The position numbers were made by a program, and so were the translations under genes. Below are positions 3,899-10,333 of a DNA stretch of 31,066 nucleotides, in pieces. Below the pieces are notes generated by a model. That model was not told the DNA's origin. It was given only the letters and a program-made list of their open reading frames with translations, and searched no databases. The number at the start of each line of letters is the position of its first letter. Position 1 is the first letter of the stretch. This DNA is from a virus. Its lineage: Duplodnaviria > Heunggongvirae > Uroviricota > Caudoviricetes. The stretch lies in IMG/VR virus record IMGVR_UViG_2690316153_000021; one strand, written 5' to 3'.

Positions 3899-4170
3899 GC
3901 ATTCGTATTGAAATTGGCGAACGTTATGTGGTTACCAGTGACAGCTTCCAGTTTATTCTCCACGAGAAAAAGAGAGCGGAAAGCGGTAAAAACGCCGGTC
4001 AGGAGTGGCTGGCGGTGGTTGGTTATTACCCGAAATTAAGCCAGCTCGTTTCCGGCCTGATGCATCACGATATTCTGACCGGAAGCGCAAAGTCTTTTGC
4101 TGATTTAAACGCGCAGGTTGAGCAACTCAGCAAGCGTTGTTCTGAGGCTTTTGGCTCATATGGCCGTTAA
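3895..4170 (+). CDS. Hypothetical early protein (P2 orf83 position)
   Basis: 91-aa ORF, start overlaps previous stop (ATGA); immediately upstream of and overlapping A. Confidence 0.5.
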   Translation: MSIRIEIGERYVVTSDSFQFILHEKKRAESGKNAGQEWLAVVGYYPKLSQLVSGLMHHDILTGSAKSFADLNAQVEQLSKRCSEAFGSYGR

Positions 4171-6445
4171 AGCCTCCGGGCGTTTTGTCCCTCCGTCAGC
4201 ATTTGCCGCAGGCACCGGTAAGGCGTTTACTGGTGCTTATGCATGGAACGCGCCACGCGAGGCTGTCGGGCGCGAAAGACCCCTTACACGTGACGAGATG
4301 CGTCAGGTGCAAGGTGTTTTATCCACGATTAACCGCCTGCCTTACTTTTTGCGCTCGCTGTTTACTTCACGCTATGACTACATCCGGCGCAATAAAAGTC
4401 CGGTACACGGGTTTTATTTCCTCACATCCACTTTTCAGCGTCGTTTATGGCCGCGCATTGAGCGCGTGAATCAGCGCCATGAAATGAACACCGACGCGTC
4501 GTTGCTGTTTCTGGCAGAGCGTGACCACTATGCGCGCCTGCCTGGAATGAATGACAAGGAGCTGAAAAAGTTTGCCGCCCGTATCTCATCGCAGCTTTTC
4601 ATGATGTATGAGGAACTCTGCGATGCATGGGTTGATGCGCATGGTGAAAAAGAATCGCTGTTTACGGATGAGGCGCAGGCACATCTGTATGGTCATGTTG
4701 CTGGCGCTGCACGTGCTTTCAATATTTCCCCGCTCTACTGGAAAAAATACCGTAAAGGACAGATGACCACGAGGCAGGCATATTCTGCCATTGCCCGCCT
4801 GTTTAACGATGAGTGGTGGATTAGTCAGCTTAAAGGCCAGCGTATGCGCTGGCATGAAGCGTTACTGATAGCTGTCGGGGAGGTCAATAAAGACCGTTCT
4901 CCTTATGCCAGTAAACACGCCATTCGTGATGTGCGTGCGCGCCGCCAGGCAAATCTGGAATTTCTTAAATCGTGTGACCTTGAAAACAGGGAAACCGGCG
5001 AGCGCATCGACCTTATCAGTAAGGTGATGGGCAGTATTTCTAATCCTGAAATTCGCCGGATGGAGCTGATGAACACCATTGCCGGTATTGAGCGTTACGC
5101 CGCTGCAGAGGGTGATGTGGGGATGTTTATCACGCTGACCGCGCCGTCAAAGTATCACCCGACACGTCAGGTAGGAAAAGGCGAAAGTAAAACCGTGCAG
5201 CTTAATCACGGCTGGAACGATGAGGCATTTAATCCAAAGGATGCGCAGCGTTATCTCTGCCGTATCTGGAGCCTGATGCGCACGGCATTCAAGGATAATG
5301 ATTTACAGGTCTACGGTTTGCGTGTCGTCGAGCCACACCACGACGGAACGCCGCACTGGCATATGATGCTTTTTTGTAATTCACGCCAGCGTAACCAGAT
5401 TATCGAAATCATGCGTCGCTATGCGCTCAAAGAGGATGGCGACGAAAGAGGAGCCGCGCGAAACCGTTTTCAGGCAAAACACCTTAACCGGGGCGGTGCT
5501 GCGGGATATATCGCGAAATACATTTCAAAAAACATCGACGGCTATGCACTGGATGGTCAGCTCGATAACGACACCGGCAGGCCGCTGAAAGACACTGCAG
5601 CGGCTGTTACCGCATGGGCGTCAACGTGGCGCATCCCGCAATTTAAAACGGTTGGCCTGCCGACAATGGGGGCTTACCGTGAACTACGCAAATTGCCGCG
5701 CGGCGTCAGCATTGCTGATGAGTTTGACGAGCGCGTCGAGGCTGCACGCGCCGCCGCAGACAGTGGTGATTTTGCGTTGTATATCAGCGCGCAGGGTGGG
5801 GCAAATGTCCCGCGCGATTGTCAGACTGTCAGGGTCGCCCGTAGCCCGTCGGATGACGTTAACGAGTACGAGGAAGAAGTCGAGAGAGTGGTCGGCATTT
5901 ACGCGCCGCATCTCGGCGCGCGTCATATTCATATCACCAGAACGACGGACTGGCGCATTGTTCCGAAAGTTCCGGTCGTTGAGCCTTTGACTTTAAAAAG
6001 CGGCATCGCCGCGCCTCGGAGTCCTGTCAATAACTGTGGAAAGCTCACCGGTGGTGATGCTTCGTTACCGGCTCCCACACCTTCTGAGCACGCCGCAGCA
6101 GTGCTTAATCTGGTTGATGACGGTGTTATCGAATGGAATGACCCGGAGGTCGTGAGGGCGCTCAGAAGCGCATTAAAACACGGTCTGAGAAGACCAAACC
6201 GTCAGCAAAGAAACGGAAACCCGTTAAAACCGCATGAAATAGCGCCATCGGCCAGACTGACCCGGTCAGAACGATTGCAAATTACCCGTATCCGCGTTGA
6301 CCTCGCTCAGAACGGTATCAGGCCGCAACGATGGGAGCTTGAGGCGCTGGTGCGTGGCGCGACCGTAAATTATGACGGGAAAAAATTCACGTATCCGGTC
6401 GCTGATGAGTGGCCGGGATTCTCAACAGTAATGGAGTGGACATGA
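4160..6445 (+). CDS. A: Rolling-circle replication initiator endonuclease A
   Basis: ORF track 4118..6445; ATG at 4160 (MAVKASGRFV...) gives 761 aa, the P2 gpA length. Contains the HUH-type metal-binding motif (HWHMMLF) and catalytic tyrosine motif (YIAKYISK) of rolling-circle initiators. Confidence 0.9.
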   Translation: MAVKASGRFVPPSAFAAGTGKAFTGAYAWNAPREAVGRERPLTRDEMRQVQGVLSTINRLPYFLRSLFTSRYDYIRRNKSPVHGFYFLTSTFQRRLWPRIERVNQRHEMNTDASLLFLAERDHYARLPGMNDKELKKFAARISSQLFMMYEELCDAWVDAHGEKESLFTDEAQAHLYGHVAGAARAFNISPLYWKKYRKGQMTTRQAYSAIARLFNDEWWISQLKGQRMRWHEALLIAVGEVNKDRSPYASKHAIRDVRARRQANLEFLKSCDLENRETGERIDLISKVMGSISNPEIRRMELMNTIAGIERYAAAEGDVGMFITLTAPSKYHPTRQVGKGESKTVQLNHGWNDEAFNPKDAQRYLCRIWSLMRTAFKDNDLQVYGLRVVEPHHDGTPHWHMMLFCNSRQRNQIIEIMRRYALKEDGDERGAARNRFQAKHLNRGGAAGYIAKYISKNIDGYALDGQLDNDTGRPLKDTAAAVTAWASTWRIPQFKTVGLPTMGAYRELRKLPRGVSIADEFDERVEAARAAADSGDFALYISAQGGANVPRDCQTVRVARSPSDDVNEYEEEVERVVGIYAPHLGARHIHITRTTDWRIVPKVPVVEPLTLKSGIAAPRSPVNNCGKLTGGDASLPAPTPSEHAAAVLNLVDDGVIEWNDPEVVRALRSALKHGLRRPNRQQRNGNPLKPHEIAPSARLTRSERLQITRIRVDLAQNGIRPQRWELEALVRGATVNYDGKKFTYPVADEWPGFSTVMEWT

Positions 6446-6897
6446 TGGCAAAAATTCACGAGGTAAAGCTGCACGCAAAATATTTCGACCTTGTACTGGA
6501 AGGAAAAAAACGCGCAGAGTTTCGGAAAAATGACCGTAATTATGAGCGCGGGGACACGTTGATTTTGCATGAATGGGTGCAGGGTGTGTTTACGGGGCGA
6601 AAGGTTGAAGCCCGGATAACAGATGTTACTGACCTGTCAGACTGGCTGGAAGATTATGTCTTGCTAAGTATTGAGCTGCTTAATACGGGCGCATATAAGA
6701 TTGTGAACTGGAAAGAACTTAGTGAACGTGGTCTGGTATTCAGAATTAATCATGAAATTATGCATCAGCTCGGCCTTGCTGTTATGTATGAACCAGAGAC
6801 GGGGCTGTCTGGCGGGGCAGTGGTTGCTGCGGATGGGATATGGAACTATTCAGATGAACAGGTGGAGCGTGCAAAGCAAAACGGGTGGCTTGGATAA
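6445..6897 (+). CDS. ASCH/DUF3850-like domain protein with extra C-terminal region
   Basis: Start ATG overlaps the A stop (TGATG). N-terminus (HEVKLHAKYFDLVLEGKKRAEFRKNDRNYERGDTLILHEW) matches my recollection of the DUF3850 / ASCH (PUA-like) signature; C-terminal about 70 aa unassigned. Confidence 0.5.
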   Translation: MAKIHEVKLHAKYFDLVLEGKKRAEFRKNDRNYERGDTLILHEWVQGVFTGRKVEARITDVTDLSDWLEDYVLLSIELLNTGAYKIVNWKELSERGLVFRINHEIMHQLGLAVMYEPETGLSGGAVVAADGIWNYSDEQVERAKQNGWLG

Positions 6898-7103
6898 TGC
6901 ACAGAATACCAGGCGAGATACCGCACCATAAAACTAAAAATATCAAGCTGATGGCTATTGTTCAGCGTTTACAGCGGATTATGGTCAACGAAAATCTGAC
7001 GCCCGATGAGCTGGTCGGGTGTGCCGAAATAGTTCGGGATAATTACGGGCGGCTTAACTATATCGGTCAGTCCAGAGTTGCGCCACCACCACGAAGACGA
7101 TAG
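6897..7103 (+). CDS. Small hypothetical protein (68 aa)
   Basis: ATG overlaps the stop of the preceding gene (TAATG), suggesting translational coupling; otherwise no support. Confidence 0.3.
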   Translation: MHRIPGEIPHHKTKNIKLMAIVQRLQRIMVNENLTPDELVGCAEIVRDNYGRLNYIGQSRVAPPPRRR

Positions 7104-7284
7104 AGAACGCCGCCAGTCGTGAAACTTGTTTTCAGGGCTGGCGGGGTTGAACAACGAGCGTAGCGAGGCGTTAGTTGACAGACATATTTTTACTGCGTTG
7201 GTGCCGGTTTTTGACGGTTGAAAGGAGTTAGGTTGGAGAGCTAACAACTTACAAATATTCAAAAGTAAGCATCCTGTTGCTAAC

Positions 7285-8058
7285 ATGAGGTCGATTTTTT
7301 ATGTGGATGATGCAAAAAGGATAGCTATGGATACTATAATCGCTTTTCTATCACTCGCTTTTTTCGTTGCTTTCTTCATCGGGTTAATCAAGCCATCACT
7401 GGTGCGAATGCCAAACCGCAAACGTGCAAGTGCGGTTTATCTCGGAGGAGGTTTTGTATTGAGCATAATTGGTTCAATACTCTATCCAACAGAAAAAAGC
7501 CAGCCAGTTGATAAAACTGAAACATCAACCGTTGCAGAACATAAAGTCCAAAAAACATTCGAATATGGTGAAAAAACACTCAAGGAATATCGGAACGAGT
7601 CAAAGAAAACACGACACGATATTGTGAATAGTTACATTGATTTTAAGGAAGTTCCAGCCACCGCGTCAGATGCGTTTTATGCCTGCATGAGTGAATATAC
7701 ATTTACCAAAGATGATGAGTTGAAACTCGGTGATGTTCTTGGGTGGTGCTTTAATGATTATGAAAATGACCCGAATTCACTAAACAATAAAATCAATCTT
7801 GATACATTTCAGAGTAATTTTAGTGGTTGGGATGGTTCTTATCGTCCATTGGAAAAACTAATTAAAGATAATATGAACGATGATTCATCTTATAAACATG
7901 TATCAACGGTATATCATCTGGTTTTGAATAAAGACCCGCATGCCATTGTGAAAACCACGTTTCGCGGAACTAATGCTTATGGCGGAGTGGTGAAACAGAC
8001 GATTGCTGCGCGTGTTGATATAAAAACTGGTAAGGTGATATCAATCATAGATAATTGA
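7285..8058 (+). CDS. Accessory (moron) membrane protein: two N-terminal hydrophobic helices plus about 190-aa soluble domain, unknown family
   Basis: 257-aa ORF (an alternative start at ATG 7327 has an AAGGA SD). Hydrophobic segments TIIAFLSLAFFVAFFIGLI and VYLGGGFVLSIIGSILY. Visibly AT-rich relative to the flanking phage genes. Occupies the P2 tin/old slot between A and cos. Followed by a hairpin plus T-tract. Confidence 0.6.
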   Translation: MRSIFYVDDAKRIAMDTIIAFLSLAFFVAFFIGLIKPSLVRMPNRKRASAVYLGGGFVLSIIGSILYPTEKSQPVDKTETSTVAEHKVQKTFEYGEKTLKEYRNESKKTRHDIVNSYIDFKEVPATASDAFYACMSEYTFTKDDELKLGDVLGWCFNDYENDPNSLNNKINLDTFQSNFSGWDGSYRPLEKLIKDNMNDDSSYKHVSTVYHLVLNKDPHAIVKTTFRGTNAYGGVVKQTIAARVDIKTGKVISIIDN

Positions 8059-8067
8059 TATCTTACA

Positions 8068-8107
8068 ATGCCGACGCTGAATATTTAATTGGGTGTCGGC
8101 ATTTTTT
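8068..8107 (+). terminator. Rho-independent terminator-like hairpin after the first cargo gene
   Basis: atgccgac (8068-8075) pairs with gtcggcat (8095-8102), about 19-nt loop, followed by TTTTTT (8102-8107). Confidence 0.55.
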
Positions 8108-8167
8108 GACTATTAGAGCGGCAGAACCGAGATTTGTTGCGTATGAGATTAGCACTGCGAGAATGTT

Positions 8168-8950
8168 ATGAAAATTATAAACCAACTTAAGAAGTTTGAT
8201 AAGAAAAGAACGCCAGATGATGGCCGTATTAGTTTGTTATATGAAAACGCGATTAAGTATGATATGTACTCTGTATATATTAAAGATAAAAATGATACAG
8301 AATACCTCTTTGACTGTTTGGTTGATGGGAAGATAAAGGCTTTTAAATGGGATGATGAGGAGCGTAGATTTCATATAAGTTCATGCTTGGATATTTCTGA
8401 GGTTACGCCTGATTCTTTTTTTGGTGTTTACTACTACCGTGCGCATGAGTTGCGATTTAACTCTTTAAATGATTTAACATTTTTAAGGGAGTTGTTCTTT
8501 AGAGTAAAGTCTAATTATGAAAATATAAAGTTTAGTCGTGAAAAATATATTTATCGACAGCAAAAAAAAGAAATAACTGATGTGATGTTTGTTCTCTCAA
8601 CGATTATAAGAATGTATCGTGAATGGGATGCTCAAACTGTGTTTAGTGAGTTTTCAATAATGACCGAAGTCGCTGGTAGTTTATGGGTATACCATGACGA
8701 TAAAAACAGGATGCGTAAAGAGCTTCGTTTATGCCTGAATTCTCTTGTTCAGAATGGAGATCTTGTTGAAACAAGTAGTGGATTTAGGCCAACAGGAAAG
8801 GCACTGAACACAATATCTACATTCAATAAAGATGAGGTGCGGTACAGAGAGAATTTGAGTACTCAGAAGAAAATGTTTTGGGCTACTTTTTTCGCAGCAG
8901 TCGGCGGCGTAGGAAGTATGATTGCAGCTATAATAGGGCTTCTAAAATGA
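8168..8950 (+). CDS. Accessory (moron) protein with single C-terminal transmembrane anchor, unknown family
   Basis: 260-aa ORF, strongly AT-rich; C-terminal hydrophobic stretch (MFWATFFAAVGGVGSMIAAIIGLLK) at the extreme end, i.e. tail-anchored topology; preceded by a terminator, so probably its own transcription unit. In the P2 tin/old slot. Confidence 0.6.
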   Translation: MKIINQLKKFDKKRTPDDGRISLLYENAIKYDMYSVYIKDKNDTEYLFDCLVDGKIKAFKWDDEERRFHISSCLDISEVTPDSFFGVYYYRAHELRFNSLNDLTFLRELFFRVKSNYENIKFSREKYIYRQQKKEITDVMFVLSTIIRMYREWDAQTVFSEFSIMTEVAGSLWVYHDDKNRMRKELRLCLNSLVQNGDLVETSSGFRPTGKALNTISTFNKDEVRYRENLSTQKKMFWATFFAAVGGVGSMIAAIIGLLK

Positions 8951-9110
8951 GCCAACAAAATCGTATGATGAAGTATTGAGTGAAAAGCATTCTTTATATG
9001 CATTATTTTGCATGCAACATATGCTATACATTCTAGCTATGAATTGTCAGACGTGGCAGTACTTCTGTATGGTAATGCAACTGCATTAAAACCGCCCCAT
9101 GAAGCGGGCG

Positions 9111-9129
9111 GGCGAGGCGGGGAAAGCAC
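9111..9129. other. cos: cos site (19-nt cohesive end sequence GGCGAGGCGGGGAAAGCAC)
   Basis: Exact string ggcgaggcggggaaagcac at 9111-9129 matches the P2 cohesive-end sequence as I recall it, and lies in the GC-rich stretch just beyond the 3' end of portal gene Q, where cos sits in P2. Confidence 0.65.
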
Positions 9130-9269
9130 TGCGCGCTGGCGGTGGTGCTGATTTTATTTTTTCAGCGTCTGAGCGCGTCGTGATGGCGTTTAGATTGTTA
9201 GCCGGGGCGTTGGTGTGTCTGCGGGCTGTTTTGTGCGGTGGTGAGCGTGTGAGGGCGTGATGGCGGGTT

Positions 9270-9293
9270 GTAAAAAAGCCGCCCGCAGGCGGC
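9270..9293 (-). terminator. Rho-independent terminator downstream of Q (minus strand)
   Basis: GC hairpin gccgcc-cgca-ggcggc (9278-9293) immediately after the Q stop; on the minus strand it is followed by a U-tract (complement of AAAAAA 9272-9277). Confidence 0.6.
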
Positions 9294-9298
9294 GATGT

Positions 9299-10333
9299 TC
9301 AGCCGTTGTCAGTGTCCAGTGAGTAGTTTTTAAAGCGGATGACCTCCTGACCGAGCCAGCCGTTTATCTCGCGGATCCTGTCCTGTAACGGGATAAGCTC
9401 ATTGCGGACAAAGACCTTTGCCACTTTCTCAATATCACCCAGCGACCCGACGTTCTCCGGCTTGCCCCCCATCAACTGAAAGGGGATGCGGTGCGCGTCC
9501 AGCAGGTCAGCGGCGCTGGCTTTTTTGATATTAAAAAAATCGTCCTTCGTTGCCACTTCACTGAGCGGGATAATTTTAATGCCGTCGGCTTTCCCCTGTG
9601 GGGCATAGAGAAACAGATTTTTAAAGTTATTGCGGCCTTTCGACTTAACCATGTTTTCGCGAAGCATTTCGATATCGTTGCGATCCTGCACGGCATCAGT
9701 GACGTACATGATGTATCCGGCATGTGCGCCGTTTTCGTAATACTTGCGGCGGAACAGCGTGGCCGACTCATTCAGCCAGGCAGAGTTAAGGGCGCTGAGA
9801 TATTCCGGCAGGCCGTACAGCTCCTGATTAATATCCGGCTCCAGCAGGTGAAACACGGAGCCGGGCGTGAAAGGTGTCGGCTCGTTGAAGGACGGCACCC
9901 ACCAGTAAACATCCTCCTCCACCCCACGGCGGGTATATTTTGCCGGTGAGGTTTCCAGTCTGATGACCTTACCGGTAGTGCTGTAACGCTTTTCCAGAAA
10001 CGCATTACCGAACACCAGAAAATCCAGCACAAAGCGGCTGAAATCCTGCTGAGAAAGCCACGGATGCGGGATAAATGTCGAGGCCAGAATATTGCGTTTG
10101 ACGTAAATTGGTGAGCTGTGATGCACGGCAGCACGCAGGCTTTTTGCCAGACCGGTAAAGCTGACCGGTGGCTCATACCATCTGCCGTTACTGATGCACT
10201 CGACGTAATCCAGAATGTCACGGCGGTCGAGTACCGGCACCGGCTCACCAAAGGTGAATGCTTCCATTTTCGGGGCGCTGGCAGTCATTGTTTTCACCGC
10301 TGGCTGCGGTGTTTTCCCTTTTTTCTTACTCAT
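9299..10333 (-). CDS. Q: Portal protein
   Basis: 344 aa, exactly the P2 gpQ length; position and orientation (leftward, next to cos and P) as in P2. Confidence 0.9.
   Translation of the reverse strand: MSKKKGKTPQPAVKTMTASAPKMEAFTFGEPVPVLDRRDILDYVECISNGRWYEPPVSFTGLAKSLRAAVHHSSPIYVKRNILASTFIPHPWLSQQDFSRFVLDFLVFGNAFLEKRYSTTGKVIRLETSPAKYTRRGVEEDVYWWVPSFNEPTPFTPGSVFHLLEPDINQELYGLPEYLSALNSAWLNESATLFRRKYYENGAHAGYIMYVTDAVQDRNDIEMLRENMVKSKGRNNFKNLFLYAPQGKADGIKIIPLSEVATKDDFFNIKKASAADLLDAHRIPFQLMGGKPENVGSLGDIEKVAKVFVRNELIPLQDRIREINGWLGQEVIRFKNYSLDTDNG

Follow-up and report, generated by a model that had tools for sequence, protein, structure and literature searches.

An Orf97-like gene as a candidate exclusion factor in the cos-proximal cargo region of a P2-type prophage

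Coliphage 186 Orf97 and other described exclusion proteins

The described gene that comes closest to the one considered here is orf97 of coliphage 186, whose database entry (NC_001317.1) carries the one-line note 'expression from plasmid blocks 186 infection'. According to the RefSeq record of 186, orf97 is the second gene of the LexA-repressed p95 operon (p95, tum, the partial terminator t95a, orf97, t95b). In our view, being transcribed together with the antirepressor gene tum would make exclusion available at the very moment at which repressor immunity is lost. To our knowledge, the exclusion phenotype of 186, noted decades ago, has never been explained mechanistically. The gene was reportedly described in 1996, and the source cited for it is Brumby et al. 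1996 (Virology 219:105-114). That work is referenced in PMC5322425 and PMC8538670.

The gene analyzed here lies on the + strand of a 31,066-nucleotide stretch of viral DNA, referred to as the window, and its product aligns with 186 Orf97 (NP_052294.1) over 243/243 residues with 76% identity and no gaps. The 186 gene was recovered by tblastn of a phage collection with E = 8e-117, the protein matches phrog_3403 with E = 3.5e-147, and the 60 nt upstream of the gene, including the ribosome-binding site, are homologous to phage 186. Two further phage homologs, from Peduovirus P22H4 (97% identity) and Vibrio phage VHML (ORF47; 45%), are already labeled Orf97-like in their records. The likeness to 186 Orf97 extends to the length of 243 aa, the architecture of two transmembrane (TM) helices and a soluble domain, a Cys pair, and the slot between gene A and cos. 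Likewise, the protein has the architecture of the phrog_3403 family, namely a 2-TM hairpin, a linker, a domain of ~165 residues and the Cys pair, and shares with that family the trait of being accessory cargo in P2/186-type myoviruses, as found in E. coli, Serratia, Erwinia and Photorhabdus and in VHML. We regard it as virtually certain that the gene is an orf97 ortholog and autonomous. Its setting nevertheless differs from that in 186 in several respects: the window locus lacks tum, the p95 promoter and a LexA box; the host phage is P2-type, with Cox and a short C repressor; a further cargo gene follows the orf97-like gene; and a junction hairpin is located upstream of the gene in the window but downstream of orf97 in 186.

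The same family is present in a published survey of phage cargo. Table S5B of Rousset et al. 2022 (PMC9122126) lists, as P2-hotspot system #12, a single gene labeled '2 TM' with 210 occurrences and no function given, and the protein encoded in the window is 95% identical (231/243) to this entry, from the same locus, with no difference of substance between the two. The accession pair of the window, WP_001476973 + WP_080069382, is present in Table S5A of that study, and the sequence is absent from its table of evaluated systems; apparently, system #12 was catalogued without being tested. Judging by these matches, the sequence-only reading, which had described the gene as cargo encoding a membrane protein and a candidate exclusion factor, overlooked that it was already known, both as 186 orf97 and as system #12. 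Looking up the literature by accession and PHROG id yielded no paper on the gene. Comparison of the protein with profile databases was similarly uninformative, with 0 families at E <= 1 among the PADLOC-DB v2 HMMs, no family and only two sub-threshold spurious matches in Pfam, no family in NCBIfam, only families of unknown function in PHROGs, and no match to superinfection-exclusion profiles (Imm, Sp, SieB and others, from Pfam and PHROG). The lack of matches in Pfam, NCBIfam and PADLOC agrees with the previous impression that no motif for nucleotide binding or nuclease activity can be recognized in the protein.

T4 Imm and Sp (Spackle), HK97 gp15 and P1 Sim are envelope-level exclusion proteins. 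They are small proteins of the membrane or periplasm that prevent the genome from entering once the phage has adsorbed, and the orf97-like product would resemble them in this. It also resembles SieA in being prophage-encoded by a single gene, in its inner-membrane location (predicted here) and, by analogy with 186 Orf97, in excluding its own phage type; however, the two have no Pfam or PHROG match in common, and the mechanism and the target of SieA, the ejection proteins gp16 and gp20, are established. The P2 proteins Old and Tin are cytoplasmic and act after DNA entry. Like the orf97-like gene, they are prophage-encoded anti-phage morons of the gpA-cos hotspot (PMC9122126), but there is no sequence relation to them. 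The exclusion proteins of T4 and HK97 are cited in a 2024 review of superinfection exclusion (PMC11436027) that makes no mention of phage 186 or phage P2.

The orf97-like gene and its place in the prophage

The window contains a P2-type prophage, as indicated by Pfam matches for integrase, a short HTH repressor, Cox, gpA, portal protein and terminase, and the same region is annotated alike by RefSeq in E. coli genomes with identical sequence. The gpA-cos-gpQ region of P2-like phages is a defense hotspot (Rousset et al. 2022, PMC9122126), and in the window it comprises the following elements.

ends at 6445: gpA, the upstream edge of the cargo region
6409-6897, + strand: gene with DUF3850/ASCH and DUF7415, between gpA and the cargo
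6885-7103, + strand: small ORF of 68-72 aa (68 aa in RefSeq), overlapping the DUF3850/ASCH gene
7106-7175, + strand: conserved structured junction element of ~70 nt, with a 17-bp hairpin and a short second stem, upstream of the orf97-like gene
7285-7326, + strand: in-frame upstream extension, probably an untranslated leader, beginning at the start codon chosen in the sequence-only reading
7317-7321, + strand: Shine-Dalgarno sequence AAGGA, read from the sequence, 5 nt ahead of ATG 7327
7327-8058, + strand: orf97-like CDS with the corrected start, 243 aa plus stop
8067-8107, + strand: hairpin and U6 resembling an intrinsic terminator, separating the orf97-like gene from the next ORF
8168-8950, + strand: ORF of 260 aa, the second cargo gene, between the orf97-like gene and cos
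9111-9129, + strand: P2/P4-type cos core GGCGAGGCGGGGAAAGCAC, an exact match, with none expected by chance
9299-10333, minus strand: portal gene, beyond cos

The cos core at 9111-9129 places the gene in the cos-proximal hotspot, and its position between gpA and cos/gpQ confirms the earlier assignment to cargo in a variable slot of the prophage. The GC content is 32-40% over 7250-9000, compared with 50-58% in the flanks. The orf97-like gene is present in 84 of the 5426 complete E. coli genomes (~1.5%). For a query consisting of the small ORF, the cargo and the cos/portal flank, some part matched ~2,160 E. coli genomes, as against the 84 with an orf97-like gene.

The ORF at 7285-8058 is real and amounts to 257 aa when counted from its first ATG, which had been taken as the start. 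This assignment did not hold, and a start at ATG 7285 was rejected: the true start is almost certainly ATG 7327, 42 nt downstream, because the RefSeq CDS for the gene has 732 nt, matching ATG 7327, the phrog_3403 alignment begins at residue 15 of the 257-aa form, the AAGGA motif lies 5 nt ahead of ATG 7327, and ATG 7285 is not conserved. Specifically, ATG 7285 is changed to ATA in 5 of 9 homologous loci, and in phage 186 the frame upstream of orf97 is broken by indels, so that the extension from 7285 is out of register. The AAGGA sequence is kept in all E. coli loci and in 186. The gene is real and evolves under purifying selection, with a dN/dS of 0.05 relative to 186 orf97 and of 0.10-0.18 relative to three other E. 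coli alleles and one Erwinia ortholog; for one near-identical allele, dN/dS is 0.45, a value based on very few substitutions (dS 0.05). Homologs of equal length number more than 160 across Enterobacterales.

The gene had been noted to have its own terminator-like hairpin at 8068-8107, and this observation was corroborated by RNA folding. The hairpin spans 8067-8103 and is followed by U6 up to 8107; the 65-nt stretch 8056-8120 folds with -23.8 kcal/mol (z = -6.3), and 0 of 200 shuffles were as good. A consensus terminator scan missed the hairpin only because its loop is longer than 8 nt. A hairpin likewise follows the stop codon at most orthologous loci; E. coli A37 and Photorhabdus are among those in which a T-run comes next, whereas other loci lack one. 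Upstream of the gene, no sigma-70-like promoter was found on the + strand within 7104-7326, and no LexA box (CTGT-N8-ACAG) was found in 6862-10115, even with 1 mismatch allowed; for these reasons, any expression in a lysogen may depend on read-through from the early operon or on an unrecognised promoter. The upstream regions of the loci are 95% identical, too similar for signals to stand out. Neither tum nor the p95 promoter is present at the window locus, where the upstream genes are the DUF3850/ASCH gene and the 68-72 aa ORF, and the only trace found ahead of the gene by inspection is a degenerate remnant of the t95b terminator of 186. Judged from the nucleotide sequence, the SOS-operon logic of 186 (p95-tum-orf97), with its LexA box, p95 and upstream DinI-like tum, is absent at this locus.

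The junction element at 7106-7175 has an RNAalifold energy of -24.5 kcal/mol. Further copies were located at 6343-6410 in locus L015, at about 5745-5815 in L014, and at 2772-2840 and 3745-3815 in L005. The element is found upstream of the orf97-like gene in the E. coli P2-type loci and downstream of it in phage 186 and in an Erwinia prophage, and in E. coli 50579417, it flanks orf97 on both sides. An Rfam scan of 6400-9400 gave sub-threshold chance matches only, with no family for the junction element. To all appearances, this element of the gpA-cos hotspot marks a cassette junction, a site of recombination or the end of a transcript.

The proposal that the gene forms a single-gene unit independent of the gene downstream is borne out: 186 has no partner, the neighbors are varied, the gene occupies several slots, and it has its own terminator. 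In phage 186, no gene intervenes between orf97 and cos. The 260-aa neighbor is found in only 6 of the 5426 complete E. coli genomes, always downstream of an orf97-like gene, and is missing from 78 of the 84 genomes that carry the latter. Across the loci, at least 8 different downstream arrangements were observed, with proteins of 311, 232, 198 (accompanied by an FRG-domain gene), 218, 217 (after IS5) or 429 aa in E. coli, three genes in Serratia, a 310-aa gene in Erwinia and a short 89-aa ORF in Peduovirus P22H4, most of the downstream proteins being mutually unrelated. The orf97-like gene itself is found in other slots: in Serratia it immediately follows gpA, in Erwinia it comes behind a DinI/tum-like gene, and in Photorhabdus and VHML it neighbors gpD/ogr at the opposite end of the prophage. 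The genes swapped in the slot downstream of it are candidate defense genes.

Some of these downstream proteins have recognizable relatives. By inspection, those of 232, 218 and 217 aa (L003 3258-3956, L005 3816-4472 and L006 5039-5692) appear to represent one 2-TM family. The Cys-rich 311-aa protein (L002 3225-4160) matches the PADLOC single-gene candidate PDC-S64, and a 297-aa protein from Serratia (L012 5874-6767) matches the PADLOC single-gene candidate PDC-S42. The 260-aa protein of the window has a single C-terminal TM helix (residues 241-259) and matches phrog_7611, of unknown function; no Pfam, NCBIfam or significant PADLOC match was obtained for it, and it is absent from the phage collection. 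Megablast matches between alleles of the orf97-like gene often end at nt 689-705 of 732, and the alleles diverge sharply over roughly the final dozen codons (about 8015-8055), which suggests that the recombination breakpoints of cargo swapping may lie inside the 3' end of the gene.

Membrane topology and the soluble domain

The protein, numbered on its 243-aa form, is divided into the following parts, the hydropathy values being Kyte-Doolittle means over 19 residues.

7333-7389, + strand: TM helix 1, residues 3-21, with the N-terminus predicted to be periplasmic (hydropathy 2.69; AF2 helix 2-21)
7390-7425, + strand: conserved basic loop KPSLVRMPNRKR, predicted to be cytoplasmic, net charge +5 by charge count
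7426-7482, + strand: TM helix 2, residues 34-52 (hydropathy 1.81; AF2 helix 31-52)
7483-7557, + strand: hypervariable, disordered tether, predicted to be periplasmic, residues 53-77 (AF2 pLDDT <50 for 55-74)
7558-7821, + strand: helical subdomain, residues 78-165, with Cys120/Cys141 and a tentatively HdeA/HdeB-like fold
7822-8055, + strand: C-terminal alpha+beta module, residues 166-243, with FSxWDGS...FRGxNAFG, tentatively cystatin/NTF2-like

The two N-terminal hydrophobic helices recognized by eye are thus recovered by both hydropathy and the AF2 model. The remainder of the protein, described previously as a hydrophilic domain of roughly 190 residues, is hydrophilic indeed but is not a single domain, being composed of the disordered linker (~53-77) and a folded domain (78-243) that is modeled confidently, with block means of AF2 pLDDT of about 86-95. 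The tether 53-77 is the least conserved and indel-bearing stretch of the homolog alignment, and within the inter-helix loop, residues P23, V26, M28, P29 and R31 are invariant across 24 homologs. This loop, KPSLVRMPNRKRA, has a net charge of +5, and the N-terminus and the stretch following TM2 have -1 each; therefore, under the positive-inside rule, a hairpin with both the N-terminus and the C-terminus out is predicted.

The location of the soluble domain is further constrained by its cysteines and by the anchors found across the family. Both Cys120 and Cys141 are kept without exception among close family members, and among 216 relatives covering the helical subdomain, 191 have both, 23 have neither and only 2 have one, one of these 2 being a fragment. 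The pair is kept or lost together, which points to a disulfide and hence to an oxidizing compartment. What precedes the soluble module varies in the wider family, being a lipoprotein signal, one TM segment, or a cytoplasmic zinc ribbon plus TM; more than 90% of 268 family members have a TM, lipobox, or Zn-ribbon + TM anchor, the rest being mostly fragments. The protein displays the hallmarks of extracytoplasmic proteins, with an anchor or export signal ahead of the domain and a putative disulfide pair. The covarying Cys pair, the charge pattern, and the TM and lipoprotein anchors seen in the family make a periplasmic location of the soluble domain very likely.

The absence of a sequence-family match (Pfam, NCBIfam, PADLOC) is in line with the previous description of the soluble domain, but the fold is not without precedent: the model tentatively resembles an HdeA-like helical bundle followed by a cystatin/NTF2-like module. 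These are weak structural matches, with identity to HdeA of 6-15%, and any likeness to the four-helix HdeA fold is one of fold only. Membership in the HdeA family was rejected given this low identity and the lack of a match between Pfam HdeA and the protein at E <= 1. The periplasmic acid-stress chaperones HdeA/HdeB (PDB 1bg8, 4xvv) differ from Orf97, which is membrane-tethered and fused to a second domain. Foldseek comparison with the PDB, a type of check that had been proposed along with the original description, returned nothing below E = 0.06, and the search of viral models in BFVD returned only uncharacterised proteins or lipoproteins. Searching PDB sequences with a profile produced nothing beyond a chance match (E = 1.9), and no enzymatic fold or motif was found with Pfam, structure comparison or Foldseek against the PDB.

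Candidate functions and the wider family

We estimate at roughly 60% the probability that the gene product acts in the envelope as an exclusion protein and blocks the delivery of phage genomes. Under this reading, the P2-lineage ortholog of 186 orf97 would be a self-contained, single-gene superinfection-exclusion moron, the product of which would insert into the inner membrane as a helical hairpin whose two termini face outward and whose basic loop faces the cytoplasm. The flexible tether of ~25 residues would display the module of two subdomains, putatively stabilized by the disulfide, in the periplasm, where it may interfere with genome delivery of P2/186-type phages, and possibly of others, at the periplasm or inner-membrane stage. 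Candidate targets include the tail tip, the tape-measure or ejection proteins, or an inner-membrane component that these need. Infection would be blocked and the cell would not be killed. We infer the periplasmic topology, with strong support, and likewise the blocked step and the target. Of the roles originally suggested for the protein, that of an envelope exclusion factor fits the record for the 186 ortholog with respect to the block of infection, with the DNA-injection step going beyond that record, whereas no support was found for a role in sensing infection. An overexpressed membrane protein can perturb the envelope non-specifically, a consideration that bears on the one-line plasmid-expression note for 186.

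Several other explanations deserve consideration, none of which is favored by the data. P2/186-type phages use the LPS core as receptor, and exclusion might operate at adsorption, the periplasmic domain changing how the LPS core is assembled or exported on the outer side of the inner membrane, so that these phages would no longer adsorb productively. Such a role would be compatible with the predicted periplasmic face at the inner membrane and with the phenotype recorded for 186, a block of infection with no stage given, but we consider it unlikely, given that the searches revealed no fold or motif of a glycosyltransferase, an acyltransferase or another enzyme, that a small domain on a floppy linker is more typical of a binder, and that the module occurs in many phyla with different envelopes. 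It is also quite improbable that the protein is an abortive-infection or toxic membrane effector, in which the 2-TM hairpin would depolarise or permeabilise the membrane so that the apparent block is actually death or growth arrest. TM proteins of hotspot systems are often proposed to be abortive-infection effectors (Rousset 2022, PMC9122126), the region of TM1 and the loop is unusually conserved, and the 186 phenotype came from plasmid expression; yet, there is no sensor partner, the gene being alone in 186 and its neighbors varying without homology, it is the predicted periplasmic domain, not a pore-forming segment, that accounts for most of the conservation and mass, and the interchangeability of the hairpin with a lipoprotein or single-TM anchor in the family argues that this part is an anchor and not an effector.

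A function outside defense, either as a periplasmic stress or chaperone factor contributing to host fitness or as a phage induction or lysis factor, the latter suggested by the SOS co-transcription with the antirepressor in 186, seems no more credible than the toxic effector. The chaperone variant is at odds with the HdeA comparison (no Pfam HdeA match at E <= 1, 6-15% identity), the 186 record reports a block of infection, and the presence of the gene in a non-SOS P2-type phage without tum implies that an induction-specific role is not conserved. Least credible of all is a two-gene system together with the tail-anchored 260-aa protein encoded at 8168-8950. The two genes lie side by side on one strand, each encodes a membrane protein, and the 260-aa gene occurs only downstream of orf97-like genes (6/6 genomes), but it is missing in 78/84 E. 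coli genomes with an orf97-like gene, the downstream partners are non-homologous, a strong terminator lies between the genes, and 186 has no partner; a joint system was rejected on these grounds.

The observation and the interpretation in the sequence-only reading were essentially correct, and the gene family was already known: the first cargo gene of the window is a moron of the exclusion type, ordinary and previously catalogued, and does not represent a new kind of system. The additions made here are modest, namely the explicit link between the '2 TM' protein of the hotspot and 186 Orf97, the corrected start, the evidence for a periplasmic, disulfide-bonded module of two subdomains, and the size of the uncharacterised superfamily. 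The link to 186 Orf97 yields a directly testable single-gene exclusion candidate with a predicted periplasmic binding module. The family is common cargo of the P2 hotspot, being twelfth in abundance in the list of Rousset et al. (PMC9122126), and ranges over Enterobacterales, Vibrio and beyond, with no PADLOC model and no Pfam family.

Beyond the close relatives, a profile search retrieved 2802 family clusters at 50% identity, many of which share only the C-terminal module of 80 residues, and a profile of this module alone retrieved 1146 proteins from many phyla, all of them hypothetical. The module has no Pfam family, and Pfam scans of 10 distant relatives revealed nothing over the shared domain, only N-terminal parts with Zn-ribbon, bPH and DUF4124. 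The orf97-like gene provides a first functional lead for this very large family of uncharacterised extracytoplasmic domains. It is conceivable, albeit rather unlikely, that the Orf97 module is the first functionally anchored member of an extracytoplasmic superfamily that comprises at least 2,800 clusters from many bacterial phyla and from phages and intercepts phage genome delivery in the periplasm, and, as a matter of speculation, the HdeA-like subdomain might capture tape-measure or ejection proteins in extended form on their way out of the tail tube. If so, the superfamily would represent a widespread, overlooked class of single-protein envelope immunity.

Two small proteins that have only the module, encoded at 4001-4381 in locus L019 and at 4001-4378 in L021, are distant relatives located in chromosomal islands of small hypothetical genes. 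With no consistent partner between these two contexts, the islands adjoin TerD/HAD/PRTase_3 genes in one case and HSDR_N and PLDc_2 genes in the other, which hints at variable or defense-type neighborhoods.
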